Shown: positions 16,746 through 25,240, counted from the stretch's first letter. The stretch is DNA of 64,000 nucleotides from Clostridia bacterium (GCA_017623705.1 JAGAOQ010000021.1:9485-73484), one strand, 5' to 3'. A program made the numbers and translations. The notes: generated from the letters alone by a model not told the origin.

Positions 16746-16822
16746 TGGTGGAGGTGAGCGGATTCGAACCGCTGACCCCCTGCTTGCAGGGCAGGTGCTC
16801 CGACCAGCTGAGCTACACCCCC
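16746..16822 (-). tRNA. tRNA-Ala (anticodon UGC), CCA encoded
   Basis: Hand-folded cloverleaf: GGGGGTG/CACCTCC acceptor stem with the G3:U70 Ala identity pair, anticodon stem CCTGC/GCAGG, loop CCTGCAA, T-loop GGTTCGAATCC. Confidence 0.9.
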
Positions 16823-16836
16823 AGGTTCTAAAAAAT

Positions 16837-16865
16837 ATTTTAGAAAACTTGTAGCTTTTTGTCAA
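16837..16865 (-). promoter_or_regulatory. sigma70-type promoter for tRNA-Ala (TTGACA-17 nt-TAAAAT)
   Basis: The minus strand reads ttgacaaaaagctacaagttttctaaaat. The -10 box ends 14 nt before the tRNA 5' end. Confidence 0.6.
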
Positions 16866-16871
16866 GTACTA

Positions 16872-16880
16872 TGTTATAAT
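16872..16880 (+). promoter_or_regulatory. extended -10 promoter TGTTATAAT for tRNA-Arg
   Basis: TGTTATAAT lies 19 nt upstream of the tRNA-Arg 5' end. The same 9-mer or near-identical copies recur before gyrB, yidC, 35486 and 62513. Confidence 0.6.
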
Positions 16881-16899
16881 TATTTTGTTCAAGCAAAAC

Positions 16900-16976
16900 G
16901 CACCGCTAGCTCAGCTGGATAGAGCGTCTGTCTACGGAACAGAAGGTCGAGCGTTCGAATCGCCCGCGGTGCACCA
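16900..16976 (+). tRNA. tRNA-Arg (anticodon ACG), CCA encoded
   Basis: Hand-folded: acceptor GCACCGC/GCGGTGC, D-arm GCTC-AGCTGGATA-GAGC, anticodon loop CTACGGA, T-loop TTCGAAT (one A:C mismatch in the T stem). Confidence 0.9.
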
Positions 16977-17100: not shown

Positions 17101-17206
17101 GTTAATTAAAGTTAATGTTGCTTTTTGTATTTATCATTTATGAATATTCCATTTACACACTTTAATATTTTGATATATACTATTTAAGTATTTTTGACGA
17201 TTTCAT

Positions 17207-18595
17207 ATGATAAACTTTGATAAAGAATCCCAGTTATATGAAAAGTCGTTAGACGTGAATTATAAAAAGTCTAATGGTGTTTTTTACACTGATTTAAATT
17301 TGGCTCAATTAATAATGAATGAAATTGAGTTTAAACATCCCGATGTAAGAGTAATAGATCCTTGTTGTGGTACTGGTGTTTTTGTAAAAATAGCCGTTGA
17401 TAAAGGATTAAATAATGTTTATGGAATTGATTTGGATAAAACTGCTATTAGTCTTGCAAAAAAGATGTGTCCATCAGCTAATTTAAAATCAATGGATAGT
17501 ATCTCGAATGATTTTAACGAGATTATGAAAAAATTTAAAATCAAAGAAAAATTTGACTATGTTATTGGGAATCCGCCATATGTTCCTTTAACATCTGCAT
17601 CATTAAAAACACAAGAATATTTATTTTTAAGACAAGTTAAAAATTATGGGGATAATCTTTACATTGCTGCACTGTTACGAGCCAAGGAGATGTTAAATGA
17701 CGACGGAATTATTTCTTACATTATACCTAAAAATTTTTTGCACGTTGATTCTTATAGTTTTCTAAGAAGGGAGTTATTGCGCGATTTTTCAATCATTTCT
17801 ATTGTTGACATCGGGATGTATTTCAAAAAAGTTAGAGGCGAACAGATTGTTTTAACATTGCAAAAGAAGAAAAATGCCAATAATGTTATTAAGTTAAAAA
17901 AACTAATCAATAATAAATTTGAGTTTTTAACTGAAATAAGACAAGATTTTTACACAGACAAAATTATTATATTTGAAAATAAAGAAGATGTTGAAATTTA
18001 TAGAAAATTTAACAAATCATACACAACATTAAACGATTATGTTAATGGTTACGTTGGCAGGGGACATTCGCAATCTTCAAATGCAATTTGCGGTAAAGAT
18101 ATTAGAAAATTTGGACTCAAATCTCTACCACAACAAGAAGATGGTAGCCAAATATTTATACAAAATATTTATAGTGCGGAAGCTGGTATAATAGCTTGTT
18201 TCGGTGGAAAACTTGAAGCAAATGAAACCGTTACCATTTTTACTGATGGTGATTCAACAATGTGCAGGTATGTATTAGGCATTATCCATTCGAAATTGAT
18301 AAATTTCTATTTACTTAAATATTGTTATAATAATTCATCTGTAACAATGCACGTTGATGCTAAATATTTACGTAGTATTCCTTTTATTGTTGATAATGAA
18401 AATTTTAACATTGTTCTAGAATACGTCGATAAACTAGAAAGTTTGGACTATATGTCAAATGAGTGGTTTGAATATTGTAACCTGTTGAATAGAATAGTTT
18501 ATAGAATTTATAATTTATCAGAAAAAGAAATTAATTTTATTGATGCATTTATTAAAAAAACTCAATCAAAAAAGTGGGACAGAAATGGCAAATAG
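17207..18595 (+). CDS. N6-adenine DNA methyltransferase (gamma-class, Eco57I/TaqI-like)
   Basis: 462 aa. GVFYTD (motif X), IDPCCGTGVF (motif I), IGNPPYVP (motif IV), long C-terminal target-recognition region. Confidence 0.8.
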   Translation: MINFDKESQLYEKSLDVNYKKSNGVFYTDLNLAQLIMNEIEFKHPDVRVIDPCCGTGVFVKIAVDKGLNNVYGIDLDKTAISLAKKMCPSANLKSMDSISNDFNEIMKKFKIKEKFDYVIGNPPYVPLTSASLKTQEYLFLRQVKNYGDNLYIAALLRAKEMLNDDGIISYIIPKNFLHVDSYSFLRRELLRDFSIISIVDIGMYFKKVRGEQIVLTLQKKKNANNVIKLKKLINNKFEFLTEIRQDFYTDKIIIFENKEDVEIYRKFNKSYTTLNDYVNGYVGRGHSQSSNAICGKDIRKFGLKSLPQQEDGSQIFIQNIYSAEAGIIACFGGKLEANETVTIFTDGDSTMCRYVLGIIHSKLINFYLLKYCYNNSSVTMHVDAKYLRSIPFIVDNENFNIVLEYVDKLESLDYMSNEWFEYCNLLNRIVYRIYNLSEKEINFIDAFIKKTQSKKWDRNGK

Positions 18596-19349
18596 AGCAA
18601 ATGATTTAACGGGAAAAGAATGGTTGCAAAATTCTTTTAGTATTTGGCGAGACCTAAAAAAAACACAAGAAGAGAAGAATCTTGGGCATCCTGCGTCTTA
18701 TCCAATAAGTTTGTGTGAAAAATTAATTAAAACATTTGCAAGAAATAATTGTAATGTCCTAGACCCTTTTAATGGAGTTGGAACAACAATGGTTGCAGCC
18801 GAAAATTTAGGATGCAACGGAACTGGAATTGATTTATCAGAAGAATATTGTAATATTGCAAGAAAAAGAATTACATCAGATAAAATAAAGATTTATCAAG
18901 GTGATAGTTTTAAGTTAGTAAATTCTCTAGAGAAAAATAGCTTTGATTTAGTTGTAACTTCACCACCTTATTGGGATATTCTTAATCAAAAAAGGACAGT
19001 TGACCAAAAAAATAATATCAATTATTCAGATAAAAATAATGATTTAGGCAATATCGATGATTATTGGAAATTTATAGAATCGCTTAAAAACTTATTTGCA
19101 AATATTTATCCTTTATTAAAACATAAATCATATTGTTTAATAAATGTTATGGATTTGAGAAAAGGCAGTAACTTTTATTCTTTCCATAGCGACCTCGCCT
19201 ATGCATTAAAAGATGTTGGCTATATATTTGATGATTTAATTATTTGGGATAGACAAGCTGATTACAATAATATGAAGACTCTAGGTTATCCATATAAATT
19301 TAGGATTAACAAAGTTCACGAATATATTTTGATTATGTATAAGGAGTAA
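18585..19349 (+). CDS. N4/N6 DNA methyltransferase with motif I upstream of SPPY (apparently permuted beta-class)
   Basis: Start moved to ATG 18585 (MANRANDLTGKEW). HPASYP...VLDPFNGVGTT (motif I) is followed by VTSPPYWD (motif IV), then a IIWDR...HEYILIMYK block. Confidence 0.75.
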   Translation: MANRANDLTGKEWLQNSFSIWRDLKKTQEEKNLGHPASYPISLCEKLIKTFARNNCNVLDPFNGVGTTMVAAENLGCNGTGIDLSEEYCNIARKRITSDKIKIYQGDSFKLVNSLEKNSFDLVVTSPPYWDILNQKRTVDQKNNINYSDKNNDLGNIDDYWKFIESLKNLFANIYPLLKHKSYCLINVMDLRKGSNFYSFHSDLAYALKDVGYIFDDLIIWDRQADYNNMKTLGYPYKFRINKVHEYILIMYKE

Positions 19350-19353
19350 AAAA

Positions 19354-20241
19354 ATGAACATACAAATGGCATATTTATTAGGAATGATAATTGGTAACGG
19401 AGAAATACAAAGAAACAATTCTGCTACTAAAATTTTAATAAACATTCCACATAAGAACGAAAGAACAGATGATGGGAATGATGTAAAAATTTATGTAAAA
19501 GCAAGTATCACTGATATAAAATCAGCTTTAGAGCCAACCATTGGTACAATATTAAACTGTACTCAAAACAAATCGGTATCAACGATTTATTTTGAAAAAC
19601 CAAATTCTGATTATTTAATAACTGAAATTATGAGAATGTGTCAAAACGAAAGAACATTTGAAACAATGCACGTTCCACAGTATTTTTATACTGCATCACG
19701 AGATGAGATACTTTATTTTTTACGAGGCTTTTGTGATGTAACTGCTTATATACGAAAAAGTAATTGTTATATTGATGGAATAACACAGAGAGTGTATATT
19801 GAAATTATGCACAACTGGTATGTTGCTGCAGAAATATGTAATTTACTTAAAATAGTAGATATACCTGTTCAAACCATAGATTGGGCACATCCAAATATGA
19901 GAGATGGTAAATTAGCAAAATATAATCAAGGCAATCATAATTTTTGGAAAAAAGAACATCAAATTAAAATTACAGCAAATGAATTTTTGCCAATAGGTTT
20001 TACTGTTATTCACAAAAACAATGCACTTGAAAAATTTGCGAATGAAATGATTAACTATTATTCTAGGTTAGGCAAAAATATATCTGAAAAAACCCACAAA
20101 TTTTATTGGCAAAAAAAGAAGAAGCGTAGTTTACGTCCAAGCCATCCTGGAGAAAGTGATGTGTCAATTCCATCAGAAATTAGAGGGAAACATTATGATT
20201 GTTGGCAAGATATTGCAAATGATTTAGGTTATAGGGAGTAA
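19354..20241 (+). CDS. hypothetical protein with two degenerate LAGLIDADG-like motifs (possible DNA-binding or specificity component)
   Basis: 295 aa. AAGGAG RBS. AYLLGMIIGNGEI near the N-terminus and ILYFLRGFCDVTAYI about 110 aa later resemble LAGLIDADG helices, but the usual acidic catalytic positions are N and T. By-eye assignment only. Confidence 0.35.
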   Translation: MNIQMAYLLGMIIGNGEIQRNNSATKILINIPHKNERTDDGNDVKIYVKASITDIKSALEPTIGTILNCTQNKSVSTIYFEKPNSDYLITEIMRMCQNERTFETMHVPQYFYTASRDEILYFLRGFCDVTAYIRKSNCYIDGITQRVYIEIMHNWYVAAEICNLLKIVDIPVQTIDWAHPNMRDGKLAKYNQGNHNFWKKEHQIKITANEFLPIGFTVIHKNNALEKFANEMINYYSRLGKNISEKTHKFYWQKKKKRSLRPSHPGESDVSIPSEIRGKHYDCWQDIANDLGYRE

Positions 20242-20243
20242 TT

Positions 20244-20717
20244 GTGAGGGAATTTGATTTATATGAACCAATGGTTAATTGGTTAAAACAATACTTAGAG
20301 GGGAAATATAAAAATTGTGAAATCTTTGTAGAAGATACTCATTCTCAAAGGTTAGACCGAGCTTTACATAAATATGGAATAATAAATGATTTAGCAACTG
20401 GTGTCGATATTCAAATAGATGTCCTCGGTATTGTTAGAAAAAATGAATCATATAAATTATTCTTTATTGAAGCGAAGATTACAAAACTTACGCTGAGAGA
20501 TTTAGGTCAATTATGGGCATACTGCAAGTTGATTGACCCAGAAGAAGCATTTTTATTAACATCTGAAAGTTTTGGTTCTTTGAATAAAATTTTAAGAACT
20601 TTTGGGCGAGAAGATTTATTAGATTTTGGCAATGGAAAAAAAATAAAAAAGATGAAAGTTGGAATTTGGAATGTTGCTAGAAATAATATCGATTATATGA
20701 CACTAATACCACAGTAA
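20244..20717 (+). CDS. small PD-(D/E)xK-type nuclease (candidate restriction endonuclease)
   Basis: 157 aa. GTG start with AGGGAG RBS. VDIQIDVLGIV...LFFIEAK gives a D...ExK arrangement with a downstream QLWAY helix, as in restriction-endonuclease-fold proteins. Confidence 0.5.
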   Translation: MREFDLYEPMVNWLKQYLEGKYKNCEIFVEDTHSQRLDRALHKYGIINDLATGVDIQIDVLGIVRKNESYKLFFIEAKITKLTLRDLGQLWAYCKLIDPEEAFLLTSESFGSLNKILRTFGREDLLDFGNGKKIKKMKVGIWNVARNNIDYMTLIPQ

Positions 20718-20758
20718 AATTAAAAAATTCATATTTGGCAGTTAAACGTGTGCTTGTC

Positions 20759-20780
20759 TATATATACAAGTGGCGTCGCT
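20759..20780 (+). repeat. left copy of flanking direct repeat (inside a 14-bp inverted repeat, 20748-20761 / 20791-20804)
   Basis: Read directly from the sequence: gtgtgcttgtctat...atagacaagcacac encloses the repeat. Confidence 0.7.
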
Positions 20781-21237
20781 TCGCTCCGCCATAGACAAGC
20801 ACACTAAGCAAGCCAAAACGATGGCGAAAATTGGGTCGGTGCGCAGGCTTTTCACCGGACCCAATTTTTCTTTCCGCCGTCGTTGTTTTTTTCGGCACTG
20901 ATTTTTATCTGTGCCGTTTTAAATTTTTTGCATAGTCTTTTCGCTGTCAATGTTCTTTTTCATTGACAGTTTATATGCTAAAAATTTTGGGTCTTGCTTT
21001 TTCTAATACGGTGTGCTAGTCTATTCGCTGGTACGAAAAAAGACCACGCAAAATGACAATTAAATAGTATTAGTAAATTTTGTTAAGTGAACGGACCGCA
21101 ACTCGAAAAATTAACGAAGAATCAAATTCGGCCCGATTAAAAAAATAAAAAGTAAAAAATTGCATTTATGGGCGTTAAAGAAAATAGTGGCCAAATTTTC
21201 TTTGCGTCTTTTTTTGTCCTTAAAAGGAGTTAAAAAA

Positions 21238-21366
21238 ATGCAAAAACCAACAATCGTAATTAAGAATGATTTAGATTTATCTCTAATTAACAATGAGTTC
21301 ATTGTGGCAATGCTGAATTTAATTCTTAAGGATAAGGAGCAGGAAAATGGACTACATCAAAACTAA
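21238..21366 (+). CDS. small hypothetical protein (42 aa)
   Basis: AAAGGAG RBS 8 nt upstream of ATG 21238 (MQKPTIVIKNDLDLSL...). No family recognised. Confidence 0.35.
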   Translation: MQKPTIVIKNDLDLSLINNEFIVAMLNLILKDKEQENGLHQN

Positions 21367-21417
21367 AATCTATTTTGACGGTAGCCATTACATTGGCATT
21401 CCCAAAACAGCTCAGTA

Positions 21418-22224
21418 TTGGAAGAAAAAAAACACAAATCTAAACCACAAACAAATGAAACAGAAACAAAAGTTAAAGCAATGTTAAGTGAGAAAACAAA
21501 CGAAACTAAACAAGAGAAAACAAAACGAGTAATTAAAGAATTAGACAATGAAATAAAAAATTTTGCACACAGTAAATCAATTGTCGATAAAGTTATCAGT
21601 AAATATAAACGCAATCGTATTGTCAGATTAACTAGATTAAGTCGTAAAGTTGGATTACAACAATGGACACATTTTTGCACATTTACATATGATTCTAATA
21701 AATTAACAGAAACTGAATTTAGAGAAAAATTTTTAAATTGTATAAGACATTTATCCAATCGTAAAGGTTGGAAATACATTGGTGTCTTTGAACGCAGTCC
21801 AGAATTACAAAGACTTCATTTTCACGGCATCTTTGTCATTCCAGAAATGGTCGGCGAAATCATAGAAACCAAAGATTATTCTACCAAAACCCACCAAATG
21901 CAAATTGCTCATCAAAACACTTTCTTTTTAACACGCTTTGGTCGTAACGATTTCAAACCTATAGAAGATAATGCTACGGCACAGAAAGCCGTTAGATACA
22001 TCTTGAAATATATTCGTAAGACCGGTGAGAAAGTGATTTATTCTAAACACTTACAAACCTATTTTGTAACCGATGTTATGGAAGATGATGTAATTTGCAC
22101 AATCGGACAAGAGAACCGCAAGATTCTTCTCTTCGATGATTTTAAGTGTTGGGATTTGGTAAACGGAAAACTGTTTGGCATGGTGAGTAAAAAGTTGATA
22201 GATAACTTGCCAAAAGCTTTCTAA
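21418..22224 (+). CDS. rolling-circle replication initiator (HUH endonuclease, two-tyrosine type); true start probably 21347 via a frame change at the A8 tract
   Basis: FCTFTYD (motif 1), RLHFHGIF (HUH), AVRYILKYIRK (YxxKY as in the phiX174 gpA family). The track ORF starts at a TTG. An RBS-led ATG at 21347 lies in another frame. Confidence 0.7.
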   Translation: MEEKKHKSKPQTNETETKVKAMLSEKTNETKQEKTKRVIKELDNEIKNFAHSKSIVDKVISKYKRNRIVRLTRLSRKVGLQQWTHFCTFTYDSNKLTETEFREKFLNCIRHLSNRKGWKYIGVFERSPELQRLHFHGIFVIPEMVGEIIETKDYSTKTHQMQIAHQNTFFLTRFGRNDFKPIEDNATAQKAVRYILKYIRKTGEKVIYSKHLQTYFVTDVMEDDVICTIGQENRKILLFDDFKCWDLVNGKLFGMVSKKLIDNLPKAF

Positions 22225-22393
22225 GTGTCTTGTTCCGCCAGAGTGTAAACGGAATTGTTGCTCGGTCAAGGGTAAAGTGAATCGCTAGCGACCCTTGACC
22301 GTTAAGTAAAATCTTTAACTAAAAAATTACTAACAATTCCGTTTAACTCGTGGCTGTCGCAAGACAAAACAAAAAACATAAAGGAGGTAAAAA

Positions 22394-23902
22394 ATGAAAA
22401 CAGCAGTTGTGTATGCCCGATACAGCAGTGATAGTCAATCTGAGCAGTCGATTGAAGGTCAATTGCGAGTTTGTCAAGAGTACGCCAAGAATAATCAAAT
22501 TCTGATTGTTGACACTTATATCGACAGGGCAATGACGGGAACAAATGATTTAAGACCAGACTTTCAACGAATGATTCGAGATAGTAGCAAACGACAATGG
22601 AATTATGTGATTGTCTACAAACTTGACCGTTTTTCCAGAAATAAATATGAAACAACAATTCATAAACACACATTGCACAATAACGGAGTCAAAGTTTTGT
22701 CTGCTATGGAAAACATACCTGATACACCAGAAGGCATTATTTTAGAATCCTTGCTTGAAGGAATGAATCAATACTATTCCGCAGAGTTATCACAAAAAGT
22801 TCACCGTGGCTTAAACGAAAGCTACTTAAAAGGTCAATTCACTGGCGGAGCAACTTTGTATGGCTACGATATTGTGAACAAAAAAATTGTTATCAATCCG
22901 ACCGAAAGTGAAATAGTAAAAGAAATCTTTGCTAAATATGCACTTGGTTATACTGGTGTTTCAATTGCCAATGACTTAAAAAGTCGTGGCGTAAGGACAA
23001 AAGAAGGAAAGTATCTTAATGTCGCAAGAATTTACAAATTGATTAAAAATCCTAAATTTATCGGACAAACTATTCACAATGGTAAAGTTTATACTAACAT
23101 CTATCCAGCCATTATTGATGAACAAACTTGGCAAAAAGTTCAAGATGTTCGCAATACCAATAAACACTCTCATGGCAGGAAGAAAGAAGTTTATAATTTC
23201 ATCTTATCTGGTAAGTTAGTTTGCGGTCATTGTCATCATTTAATTGTTGGCGAAAGTGGGACTTCGGAAACCACGGGCAAACATTATTACTATAATTGTT
23301 TAAGTCGCAGAAGAAAGAAAGCCGTGTGTAATTTCCACGCTGTCAAAAAACAATGGCTAGAAGATTTAGTTATTCAAACAACTTGGCAGTTATTAAAAGA
23401 TAAAAACCAATTAGATGAAATTGCCAATATGATTTACCACAAACATCAAAATCTTAAAGATAAATTATCTAATGTTAAAGCATTAGAAATACGAAAGAGT
23501 AGTGCCGAAAAAGCAGTGAAGAATTTAATTACAGCACTGGAACAAGGTATTATTACCGAACAAACCAAAACCCGCTTACAAGAATTAGAAAAAGAAATTA
23601 TGCAATACAATTTTGAAATTGAACAAGAAAAACAACGAACCTACACCTACTTAACTTTGGATATGATAAAAAATTATTTATACAATGTTATACCTAATGA
23701 CAGTGTGCATACTATATCTGCACGCAAACACATTGTGAAATTATTTATTCGCGAAATTATTTTTGATAATCAAACATTAACAATTACTTACAATTTTACG
23801 GATAACAATCCCAGCAAACAACCGCTCGACGAAATCAACGAAGTCATCACTATCTCTAATAGTTCAAACAATCAAGAACCCCTTGCACCAATTCTAACGT
23901 AA
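22394..23902 (+). CDS. large serine recombinase
   Basis: 502 aa. AVVYARYSSDSQ catalytic-Ser motif, KLDRFSRN, recombinase domain, Cys4 zinc ribbon (CGHCHH...YYYNC), coiled-coil C-terminus. AAAGGAGG RBS. Confidence 0.9.
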   Translation: MKTAVVYARYSSDSQSEQSIEGQLRVCQEYAKNNQILIVDTYIDRAMTGTNDLRPDFQRMIRDSSKRQWNYVIVYKLDRFSRNKYETTIHKHTLHNNGVKVLSAMENIPDTPEGIILESLLEGMNQYYSAELSQKVHRGLNESYLKGQFTGGATLYGYDIVNKKIVINPTESEIVKEIFAKYALGYTGVSIANDLKSRGVRTKEGKYLNVARIYKLIKNPKFIGQTIHNGKVYTNIYPAIIDEQTWQKVQDVRNTNKHSHGRKKEVYNFILSGKLVCGHCHHLIVGESGTSETTGKHYYYNCLSRRRKKAVCNFHAVKKQWLEDLVIQTTWQLLKDKNQLDEIANMIYHKHQNLKDKLSNVKALEIRKSSAEKAVKNLITALEQGIITEQTKTRLQELEKEIMQYNFEIEQEKQRTYTYLTLDMIKNYLYNVIPNDSVHTISARKHIVKLFIREIIFDNQTLTITYNFTDNNPSKQPLDEINEVITISNSSNNQEPLAPILT

Positions 23903-23989
23903 TTCTAACTCACAGACGAAACCTAATAATTCCAATGCCATAATTTGGAAATCTTTGACCTTTTTGGATTTTAATTATATATTTTATCT

Positions 23990-25009
23990 ATGAAGCATAA
24001 AATTTTGAAAACTTTTATCTTAACATTTATTTTATTATTACCAATGGTAATCCTTGTAGGATGCGGAACAACAAATGAGTCAAATCAAGACAATGAATTG
24101 AAACAAGATAATGTATTTTATTTTGATGACGCTAATATCAACATTAACAACATTAATTTCAGTTTTTCTTGTTCAGAAACCAAAATTCAAAATACTGAAC
24201 TAAGAGTTACAATTACTGCAACTAATACTTTACTTAAAGACCAAATTCTTAATTTAGATAGTATAAAAGTAGTAAATGAAAAAACAAAAGTTGAATACAA
24301 ATATTCTGGTGCTACTTTTTATGGCGACATCACTTTGCAATATAATATAAAAACAAATTTATATTTTAATGCTTATATTCCAAGTTCTTATTTAACTGAA
24401 AACTATTACATTCAGTTTAATAACGGTGGCAATACTTATCGTATTAATTTATACGAAACACCAGATGAATTGAGAGAATCTCATACCGTTTCGTTCCAAC
24501 TTTTTTCTTACCCAAATTACAGCAATGTAAAGAATATTTCAGTTAAAGATAATAGGAAATTTGAAAAATATATTTATGAGAGTGGTGACCATCTATACTA
24601 TTGTGATACTTGGTATACTGATGAAGCAAGAACTAATGAATTTAATTGGAATTCCAAAATTACACAAGATGTTACTTTGTATGGATTTAAGTTTCCCAAT
24701 GTGCAATATTCAAGCAGTAGTGGAGAAACATTTGTATCAAAAATTAAATATGTTCCACAGGACGGAATTCTTGTTATTGATAGCTTTTCATCGAAAGTAT
24801 ATTTATCAAATTATGCCTTATATGATAATAATGATGTGAAAGAAATATATTTACCTAAAGAATTAAAAAAAATATACAATGGGAACTTTAATAAAATGAA
24901 TAATTTAGTTAAAATTCACTTTGCTGGAAGTGAAACCGAATGGAATGCCATAGAAAGCACTAGCACAATCCCATCAAATGTAACTATTATTTTTAATTCA
25001 AAGTATTAA
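23990..25009 (+). CDS. lipoprotein, function unknown
   Basis: Signal peptide with lipobox LVGC-G. N/Y/K-rich. The C-terminal IYLPKELKKIYNGNF...IHFAGSETEWNAI resembles BspA-type leucine-rich-repeat ends. Confidence 0.6.
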   Translation: MKHKILKTFILTFILLLPMVILVGCGTTNESNQDNELKQDNVFYFDDANININNINFSFSCSETKIQNTELRVTITATNTLLKDQILNLDSIKVVNEKTKVEYKYSGATFYGDITLQYNIKTNLYFNAYIPSSYLTENYYIQFNNGGNTYRINLYETPDELRESHTVSFQLFSYPNYSNVKNISVKDNRKFEKYIYESGDHLYYCDTWYTDEARTNEFNWNSKITQDVTLYGFKFPNVQYSSSSGETFVSKIKYVPQDGILVIDSFSSKVYLSNYALYDNNDVKEIYLPKELKKIYNGNFNKMNNLVKIHFAGSETEWNAIESTSTIPSNVTIIFNSKY

Positions 25010-25061
25010 ATTATCAATAATTTGAGTGTATAATATTAAACACAAACATTTGCTTGGAATT

Positions 25062-25090
25062 CTAGCGTGCCTTTATATATATAACAAGTG
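25062..25090 (+). repeat. partial extra copy of the flanking repeat (CTAGCGTGCCTTTATATATATAACAAGTG)
   Basis: It matches 25185-25211 except for a TA expansion, then diverges after ACAAGTG. Confidence 0.65.
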
Positions 25091-25184
25091 AATGAAAATT
25101 TGCGGTCAAAAATAGACTAAAAAAAATGGCTAATTTTAACAAAAAAAAGACGGTAATTTTACACAAAAATAGCAATTTGAGATC

Positions 25185-25219
25185 CTAGCGTGCCTTTATA
25201 TATAACAAGTGGCGTCGCT
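25185..25219 (+). repeat. right copy of flanking direct repeat
   Basis: CTAGCGTGCCTTTATATATAACAAGTGGCGTCGCT. Its 3' 23 nt match 20759-20780 apart from one extra A. Confidence 0.7.
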
Positions 25220-25240
25220 ACGTAGTACAAATATAAACTA

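Follow-up and report, generated by a model that had tools for sequence, protein, structure and literature searches.

A putative type II restriction-modification module in which a LAGLIDADG-fold protein devoid of catalytic acids accompanies a small PD-(D/E)XK-type nuclease

Introduction

The class III heterodimeric type IIS/IIT restriction enzymes, represented by BspD6I/BstNBI and BtsI/BsrDI (PMC3017599), are among the described systems against which the locus reported here may be set, namely a four-gene module located in a 64,000-nucleotide stretch of DNA from Clostridia bacterium (GCA_017623705.1 JAGAOQ010000021.1:9485-73484), referred to below as the window. The module is predicted to encode two DNA methyltransferases (M1 and M2), a LAGLIDADG-fold protein without catalytic acids (P3) and a small nuclease (P4), which probably constitute a type II restriction-modification system with a bipartite enzyme, P3 being the reader and P4 the cutter. 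Like this module, the class III heterodimers combine a large recognition subunit with a PD-(D/E)XK small subunit of approximately 160–190 aa beside two methyltransferases, those of BsrDI being one N6-adenine and one N4-cytosine enzyme, while the BtsI subunits measure 328 and 164 aa. Unlike P3, their large subunits possess a PD-(D/E)XK-type site of their own; they nick DNA alone, the reader of BspD6I is FokI-like, and the BtsI gene order (M1-S-M2-L) differs from the M1-M2-P3-P4 order of the window.

FokI-type enzymes likewise keep the reader apart from the cleavage part, a non-specific PD-(D/E)XK module that must pair, although the reader fold of FokI is another one and the corresponding modules of the window are separate polypeptides. 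The Alw26I, Eco31I and Esp3I systems resemble the present module in that an adenine and a cytosine methyltransferase, either as two proteins or combined in one, protect the two strands of an asymmetric site; in contrast to P3 and P4, their nucleases are single-chain proteins.

Regarding the fold of P3, monomeric homing endonucleases such as I-DmoI, I-AniI, I-OnuI and PI-SceI share its topology and have similar helix motifs. LAGLIDADG enzymes require an acidic residue at the C-terminal end of each LAGLIDADG helix, the essential acids of I-DmoI being D21 (numbered D20 in another passage of that review) and E117, which lie at the base of its helices, while WhiA has Arg and Gly at the catalytic positions and does not cut DNA (PMC3384342). 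This 2012 review ties restriction enzymes to the HNH, GIY-YIG and PD-(D/E)XK families only and, among host proteins, links LAGLIDADG only to WhiA and maturases (PMC3384342), and the word LAGLIDADG does not occur in a 2014 review of type II enzymes. Both sources agree with the statement, in an earlier reading of the window made from its sequence alone, that this fold is not known to be among those established for restriction endonucleases. No LAGLIDADG-type restriction enzyme was found in the literature searched, REBASE lying outside the scope of the search. Finally, in two reports (PMC3258161, PMC2685105) inactive I-SceI is fused to PvuII or FokI and thus provides a dead LAGLIDADG DNA-binding module for a PD-(D/E)XK nuclease; the fusions described there are artificial, address an 18-bp site and have no cognate methyltransferases. 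By analogy, these constructs would be the closest functional counterpart of P3-P4, which looks like a natural version of them.

Results

Homologue searches returned 2226 database proteins for P3 and 2540 for P4, and the module is consequently not a product of chance. The best 120 of the 2226 P3 homologues are approximately 291–309 aa in length, share 54–84% identity with P3 (its own entry excepted) and are all named "hypothetical". An AlphaFold model of P3 built on 35 homologues was confident (pLDDT 89.1, pTM 0.89) and presents the order of secondary structure elements of the LAGLIDADG fold, as the sequence-only reading had anticipated for this 295-aa protein. Its first repeat comprises helix 3–15, strands 16–20 and 24–32, helix 49–63, strands 68–71 and 75–83 and helix 87–95, while the second comprises helix 116–128, strands 131–135 and 145–151, helix 155–167 and strands 174–176 and 202–207, followed by further helices. 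A Foldseek search of the Protein Data Bank (PDB) with this model yielded 62 matches at E<=0.001 (best E 4e-6), the best 50 of which are all LAGLIDADG proteins (probability 1.00); among the matches listed are the bI3 maturase, I-AniI, I-DmoI, I-Tsp061I, PI-SceI, PI-PfuI, I-OnuI variants and WhiA.

Sequence comparison did not retrieve this relationship, as P3 had no match in Pfam, NCBIfam, PADLOC or PHROGs, and neither P3 nor its profile had a PDB sequence match at E<=10. When 35 members of the P3 family were scanned against Pfam, weak sub-threshold matches to Hom_end were obtained for 9 of them (best E 0.0015), together with a single LAGLIDADG_3 match at 0.036; P3 is thus not a member of a curated LAGLIDADG sequence family.

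The two helices said earlier to resemble LAGLIDADG motifs, LLGMIIGNG and LRGFCDVTA, were located at residues 8–16 and 123–131 of P3, both at the C-terminal ends of predicted helices (3–15 and 116–128), the spacing between them being 115 aa and not the approximately 110 aa given before. In the LAGLIDADG consensus the catalytic acid stands five residues past the packing glycine. The corresponding positions in P3 are occupied by N15 and T130, the Asn and Thr already noted in place of the catalytic Asp/Glu, and both are invariant in 121 of 121 close homologues. Among 65 distant representatives, the first position holds Arg or Lys (58 of 66 aligned sequences, P3 included) and the second Ala, Thr, Cys, Gly, Ile or Ser, with one Asp only. 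Since the canonical acids are missing from close and distant relatives alike, canonical LAGLIDADG catalysis would have been lost throughout the P3 superfamily.

Two further features of P3 deserve attention. Firstly, its C-terminal residues 264–294 (HP.E.D..IP..IRG.H..W..IA..LGY) match a repeat protein, P0361, which in turn matches the Pfam families I-TevI DNA-binding (I-TevI_DNA-bd) and NUMOD1; this indirect link, through P0361, suggests that P3 terminates in an additional, nuclease-associated, NUMOD1-like DNA-binding motif. P0361 itself (640 aa) is composed of 11 tandem units of approximately 55 aa with the core FPLDVNGYHF.SW.DA...LGY. Secondly, W-[GA]-H-P-N (177–181), [KR]-E-H-Q-x-[KR] (200–205) and D128 are conserved in every P3 subfamily, and are shared also by a fused form and by proteins of 1000–1300 aa with a P3-like C-terminus (see below). 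The HPN and EHQxK motifs stand where a beta-hairpin has its base, on either side of the long loop between the two final strands of the second repeat, and may represent a structural site, a docking surface or a non-canonical catalytic centre.

Concerning P4, no family was found in Pfam, NCBIfam, PADLOC or PHROGs, and a PDB sequence search gave nothing useful. Its AlphaFold model (pLDDT 85.5) nevertheless displays an alpha-beta-beta-beta-alpha-beta nuclease core, consisting of helix 3–21, strand 26–31, strands 60–66 and 69–78, helix 84–97 and strand 101–106. The D...ExK signature seen in the initial reading corresponds to D59, just before the second strand, and E76-x-K78 on the third; these residues and E3 are invariant in 120–121 of 121 sequences. 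The best PDB fold matches were BamHI (E 0.01, probability 0.97), MspJI, Can2, EcoT38I and Cap4, with weak E values of 0.01–0.06 for the first four; all five share this nuclease fold, and P4 is accordingly predicted, from conserved residues and model, to be a PD-(D/E)XK-type nuclease. It had also been argued that this protein is too small to carry a recognition domain of its own. Its small size (157 aa) is real and is no proof in itself, because some type II enzymes that are complete as homodimers are of about this size, so that the case for a separate reader rests on the other evidence presented here.

The association of P3 with P4 was assessed by scanning one genome per species, whereby a P3 relative was detected in 198 species; 80 loci were fetched and, with three others, provided a set of 83. 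P4 directly follows P3 in all 83 of these, in hosts that include Clostridia, Bacilli, Mycoplasmatota, Bacteroidales, Chryseobacterium, Desulfarculales, Spirochaetia, Treponema socranskii, Campylobacter, Synergistaceae, Alphaproteobacteria, Elusimicrobia, Gastranaerophilales and Anaerolineaceae. Cultured carriers include [Ruminococcus] torques ATCC 27756, Treponema socranskii ATCC 35536, Butyrivibrio sp. X503, Merdimmobilis hominis An559 and Hominisplanchenecus murintestinalis DSM 111139. In the 83 loci the context was always a methyltransferase-P3-P4 operon, and an intron, intein or free-standing homing context was not encountered. When 1.84 billion cluster representatives were searched with a profile, 335 P3 relatives (representatives at 50% identity) were recovered, and the family ranges over many phyla of bacteria, some archaea, small plasmids and phages. 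Members of other P3 subfamilies are approximately 300–320 aa long, and one that was checked has the same order of methyltransferase, reader and small open reading frame (ORF), its second upstream gene being cut by the contig end.

A further indication that the two proteins work together came from relatives of approximately 540–557 aa, in which a P3-like region, a Lys/Glu-rich linker of approximately 70 aa and a P4-like domain succeed one another, an order of reader, linker and nuclease like that of FokI. Residues 3–155 of P4 align to residues 407–552 of one such protein, P0288, with 34% identity (E 4e-20), and PD...E-x-K is intact in P0288 and invariant across 20 fused proteins. Such natural joining argues strongly that P3 and P4, where encoded separately, function as a single enzyme, and the long flexible linker hints at cleavage beside, and not within, the recognition site. 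Like the split form, the fused form adjoins two methyltransferases. Its loci (L086 and L090–L172) derive from Acinetobacter baumannii prophages, Empedobacter (E. falsenii among them), Nanoarchaeota, Patescibacteria and a Heimdallarchaeaceae metagenome-assembled genome (a fragment), and the proteins bear a zinc-ribbon-like CxxC...CxxC insert in the first repeat.

Of the 72 loci whose downstream DNA exceeds 400 nt, 70 have a second P4-like ORF of approximately 160–170 aa 3' of the fused gene, from which it appears that P4-like domains operate in pairs. This small partner retains PD, but its counterpart of E-A-K is N-R-[ST] (Asn in 63 of 70 and Lys in none), with Glu for Q89 of P4 in 61 of 70 and Lys for E3 of P4 in 59 of 70. 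As the N-R-[ST] change is conserved it does not reflect decay, and the partner would be either an inactive structural subunit or the bearer of a rearranged active site.

Longer proteins of 990–1300 aa (P0302, P0305, P0313, P0322 and P0378) were also observed, in which the P3-like region forms the C-terminus and the long N-terminal region has no Pfam match; the fused and long P3 relatives that were tested match no Pfam or PADLOC family. In one locus (L087, 1211–4186) the long form is followed by an N6_N4 methyltransferase, two genes of unknown function and an 1853-aa RNase_T/DEAD/RecQ-type helicase, and may belong to a different defence system that uses the same reader.

The two methyltransferases conform to the classes named in the sequence-only reading, gamma-class N6-adenine for M1 (NPPY) and N4/N6 for M2 (SPPY). 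M1 matches the Pfam families Eco57I (PF07669, 1.3e-18) and N6_Mtase (6e-13), and DPCCGTG precedes NPPY, which is the gamma-class motif order; a TaqI_C-like specificity domain gave a weak, sub-threshold Pfam match (3e-4). Its top NCBIfam match, the Alw26I/Eco31I/Esp3I adenine methyltransferase family, reached 69 bits against a cut-off of 353, and M1 is hence not a member of that family. M2 matches N6_N4_Mtase (PF01555, 5.7e-31) in two stretches of swapped order, the motif-I region preceding the SPPY region, and is thus predicted to be circularly permuted relative to the usual beta-class layout and the Pfam model. Both proteins match MTase_II of PADLOC (M2 at 2e-42). M2 is probably specific for N4-cytosine, because a C5-cytosine methyltransferase fills its place in related loci.

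Two methyltransferase activities adjoin P3-P4 in 82 of the 83 loci, the exception having only 52 nt of upstream DNA. Three non-homologous sets were distinguished, namely M1 with M2 (48 loci), a C5-cytosine enzyme with M1 (13 loci) and an EcoRI-like adenine enzyme with a C5-cytosine enzyme (21 loci), M1 therefore lying upstream of P3-P4 in 61 of the 83 loci. Every locus with enough upstream DNA carries one adenine and one cytosine methyltransferase, a pattern consistent with an asymmetric site whose two strands each have their own enzyme. The P3 proteins of all three sets are mixed in one cluster at 65% identity, indicating that methyltransferase sets have been exchanged around a conserved nuclease pair. 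The EcoRI-like and C5 enzymes are fused as a 702-aa protein in L073, L059 and plasmid and phage records, a layout that is also that of the Alw26I/Eco31I/Esp3I modification enzymes. Methyltransferases with catalytic motifs beside a nuclease gene represent the gene content of a type II system.

In some related loci the EcoRI-like adenine methyltransferase carries an N-terminal HTH_3 domain (for example L074, 2648–3889), which is probably a built-in operon controller; M1 of the window has no such domain. The smallest carrier of the module is a 6.5-kb plasmid of Lactiplantibacillus plantarum P9 (L084, NZ_CP060181.1), in which the fused adenine and C5 methyltransferase, P3 and P4 lie beside a replication gene and a YafQ toxin gene. 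The minimal module also occurs in two phage genomes, both nuclease genes being annotated as hypothetical in the plasmid and the phages alike; one of the phages is a Lachnospiraceae phage (L085, PV036410.1) whose trio of fused methyltransferase, P3 and P4 lies beside an excisionase gene. Approximately half of the split loci contain one or two small accessory genes, which separate the methyltransferases from P3 or follow P4 (Table 1); the 114-aa protein (X114) and the NOV_C protein were considered as possible relatives of each other, and BLASTP revealed no similarity between them.

In the window itself, the four genes are co-oriented, tightly packed and AT-rich, as first described, with an overlap of 11 nt between M1 and M2 and gaps of 4 nt between M2 and P3 and 2 nt between P3 and P4 (Table 1). 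The ATG of M2 sits within a longer ORF with a TTG start at 18540, and homologues of M2 share a start at the ATG position, which gives the 11-nt overlap. GC content is 0.27–0.33 across 17–21 kb versus approximately 0.40 in the flanks. A promoter-like site 5' of M1 is a weak candidate for the operon promoter, as 34 such matches occur in the region versus a shuffle mean of 25.8 (sd 6.0), which is no clear excess in AT-rich DNA.

The low-GC DNA continues beyond the module. The tRNA pair upstream is a plausible integration hotspot, and no duplicated tRNA end was found. Downstream, 18-nt direct repeats bound a 4.4-kb unit (20766–25222), which looks from its gene content like a small integrative element, beginning approximately 50 nt past P4 and separate from the restriction module. 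The serine recombinase and the Rep-like gene were considered as parts of the module and rejected, since they lie in this separate repeat-bounded unit and are missing from the other 83 loci.

Table 1. Features of the module, its surroundings in the window and accessory genes of related loci (window positions unless a locus is named)
Feature	Position	Strand	Description
tRNA-Ala(TGC) and tRNA-Arg(ACG) genes	16746-16976		Divergent pair; directly upstream of low-GC block 17.0-25.2 kb
Promoter-like site	17152..17181	+	TTTACA-18-TATACT; 26 nt 5' of M1; weak candidate operon promoter
M1	17207-18595	+	462 aa; predicted gamma-class N6-adenine DNA methyltransferase
M2	18585-19349	+	254 aa, ATG start; predicted N4/N6 amino-methyltransferase
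P3	19354-20241	+	295 aa; predicted double-LAGLIDADG-fold protein without both catalytic acids; proposed DNA-recognition subunit
P4	20244-20717	+	157 aa, GTG start; predicted PD-(D/E)XK-type nuclease; proposed catalytic subunit
Inverted repeat	20748..20806		GTGTGCTTGTCTAT...ATAGACAAGCACAC; just past P4 stop; encloses left 18-nt direct-repeat copy; marks module end
18-nt direct repeat, left copy	20766-20783		ACAAGTGGCGTCGCTTCG
18-nt direct repeat, right copy	25205-25222		ACAAGTGGCGTCGCTACG
18-nt direct repeat, third copy	25076-25090		Partial
Rep-like gene (PF23343)	21418-22224		Inside 4.4-kb unit
Large serine recombinase	22394-23902		Inside 4.4-kb unit
339-aa protein	23990-25009		N-terminal hydrophobic stretch then Cys; inside 4.4-kb unit
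Accessory 114-aa protein (X114)			No family; 35/83 loci; none in window
Accessory 151-aa or 341-357-aa protein			Long form with NOV_C (PF13020) nuclease-like domain; 29/83 loci; none in window
Accessory gene, L001	3099-3443		
Accessory genes, L015	5170-5625, 5643-5987		
Accessory gene, L074	4973-5998		

Discussion

The sequence-only reading of this locus had envisaged a LAGLIDADG-like scaffold that directs a small nuclease, with two methyltransferases protecting the strands of an asymmetric site, and the comparative and structural predictions assembled here support that interpretation. In the scheme that we consider probable, M1 would methylate adenine on one strand of an asymmetric site and M2 cytosine (probably at N4) on the other. 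P3 would represent a monomeric LAGLIDADG homing-endonuclease scaffold that has been domesticated with the loss of both catalytic acids while keeping the DNA-binding beta-saddle and the C-terminal helix motif, by means of which it would find the unmethylated site, and P4, bound to P3, would perform the cutting. Two copies of P4 per P3 would probably cut the two strands, as is proposed because P4-like domains are paired in the fused relatives and the window encodes a single P4 with a canonical site. The binding of P3 to DNA, the P3-P4 complex, the stoichiometry of P4, the strand served by each methyltransferase and the position of cleavage are all inferred.

Several observations weigh against this scheme. 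The fold matches of P4 are weak, the best having an E value of 0.01. The sites recognised by LAGLIDADG enzymes are normally long, whereas those of a useful restriction enzyme, and of the methyltransferases that go with it, have to be short. The N-R-[ST] sequence of the small partner implies that pairing need not mean two active sites, and the idea of a P4 homodimer in the window would be no more than an analogy with the fused form. Moreover, the superfamily-wide W-[GA]-H-P-N, [KR]-E-H-Q-x-[KR] and D128 could form a non-canonical active site.

This last point leads to the main alternative, in which P3 is also catalytic and nicks one strand through a non-canonical centre while P4 cuts the other, in the manner of the class III enzymes BtsI, BsrDI and BspD6I. 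The conservation of the motifs in question in all subfamilies exceeds what would be expected of specificity residues, acidic residues are frequent at positions 209–210 of P3, directly past the last strand, and the extra small subunit of the fused form, being without E-x-K, would need a second active site from elsewhere. Furthermore, the large subunit of BtsI and BsrDI nicks DNA alone (PMC1950550). The position of the motifs at the base of the beta-hairpin loop is, however, equally compatible with a structural site or docking surface, the canonical LAGLIDADG acids are missing throughout the superfamily, and no nuclease family in Pfam, NCBIfam or PADLOC matches P3. P4 has a PD-(D/E)XK motif, as do the class III small subunits. 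P3 does not possess the P-D-X13-17-E-X12-Q-R motif of the BtsI/BsrDI large-subunit type, as its QR pairs (19–20 and 145–146) have no Glu 13 residues upstream. Identity of the module with BtsI/BsrDI, suggested by comparable subunit sizes (38 and 18 kDa) and from which P3-P4 was set apart by means of published descriptions, was rejected on related grounds, namely the absence from P3 of the residues D58, E72, Q85 and R86 of the BtsI large-subunit N-terminus and the differing P3 fold and gene order. A nicking P3 is on this evidence unlikely, and that the conserved HPN/EHQxK cluster has become a new active site on the LAGLIDADG scaffold seems similarly doubtful.

A second alternative, that P4 forms by itself a small but complete homodimeric restriction enzyme, P3 being a WhiA-like operon regulator or an unrelated passenger, draws on the existence of small type II enzymes of the size of P4 and on WhiA, a LAGLIDADG-plus-HTH transcription factor without catalytic acids, having the highest query-length-normalised TM-scores (0.48) among the P3 fold matches listed. 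WhiA (DUF199) and P3 share a monomeric double-LAGLIDADG core without the two catalytic acids and a C-terminal appendage of DNA-binding type; the catalytic positions, Arg and Gly in WhiA, are Asn and Thr in P3 and Arg/Lys and Ala in most of its distant relatives. WhiA differs in being a transcription factor of a conserved housekeeping operon, while P3 belongs to a mobile operon of methyltransferases and nuclease and, in relatives, is joined to a nuclease domain. No WhiA Pfam family was detected in P3 or its 35 homologues, and the C-terminal motif of P3 instead resembles, indirectly, NUMOD1/I-TevI. A simple regulator would hardly be expected to share a single chain with the nuclease, as P3-like and P4-like parts do in the fused relatives; P3 and P4 are adjacent in 83 of 83 loci; the asymmetric site implied by one adenine and one cytosine methyltransferase would not be read by a symmetric homodimer; and some loci already have an HTH fused to a methyltransferase for control. 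We therefore regard this alternative as very improbable.

Least probable of all is that the pair is not a restriction enzyme but a nuclease for cassette mobility or homing, or another defence or addiction module travelling with methyltransferases, since the homing-endonuclease heritage of the P3 fold, the mobile setting of the module (a low-GC island close to tRNA genes and to an integrative element, as well as phages and a small plasmid) and the uncharacterised accessory genes found in roughly half of the loci are set against a constant pair of strand-complementary methyltransferase activities drawn from three unrelated sets, the signature of protection from a cognate nuclease, and against a minimal plasmid version which, apart from genes for replication and a toxin, encodes only a methyltransferase, P3 and P4.

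Returning to the reading of P3 as reader and P4 as cutter, P3 is set apart from the monomeric LAGLIDADG homing endonucleases by the loss of its catalytic acids, by its occurrence outside introns and inteins and by its partnership with methyltransferases and a separate nuclease. On balance, we lean towards regarding P3-P4 as a large, undescribed superfamily of restriction enzymes with a dead LAGLIDADG reader and a PD-(D/E)XK cutter, existing in split, fused and >1000-aa forms. No restriction-enzyme name was seen on any protein of the split or fused family, every source name seen for P3 and P4 proteins being "hypothetical protein". What appears to be new about this restriction-modification system is its reader fold and its architecture, although it may already be listed in REBASE.

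Among the DNA readers that can be re-engineered, LAGLIDADG scaffolds are the best studied. A natural reader with a detachable cutter and methyltransferases of its own could give rise to new asymmetric-site or nicking enzymes, and P3-P4 could guide the design of meganuclease fusions. If the proposal is true, the module would represent the first use of the LAGLIDADG fold in restriction-modification and a natural counterpart of the engineered meganuclease-nuclease fusions. Its confirmation would add a new reader fold to restriction enzymes, which use few folds, and would provide a second independent domestication of a homing-endonuclease scaffold, after WhiA. Given the large size of the P3 and P4 families, many gut-microbiome genomes would then carry a restriction barrier that has so far escaped annotation.

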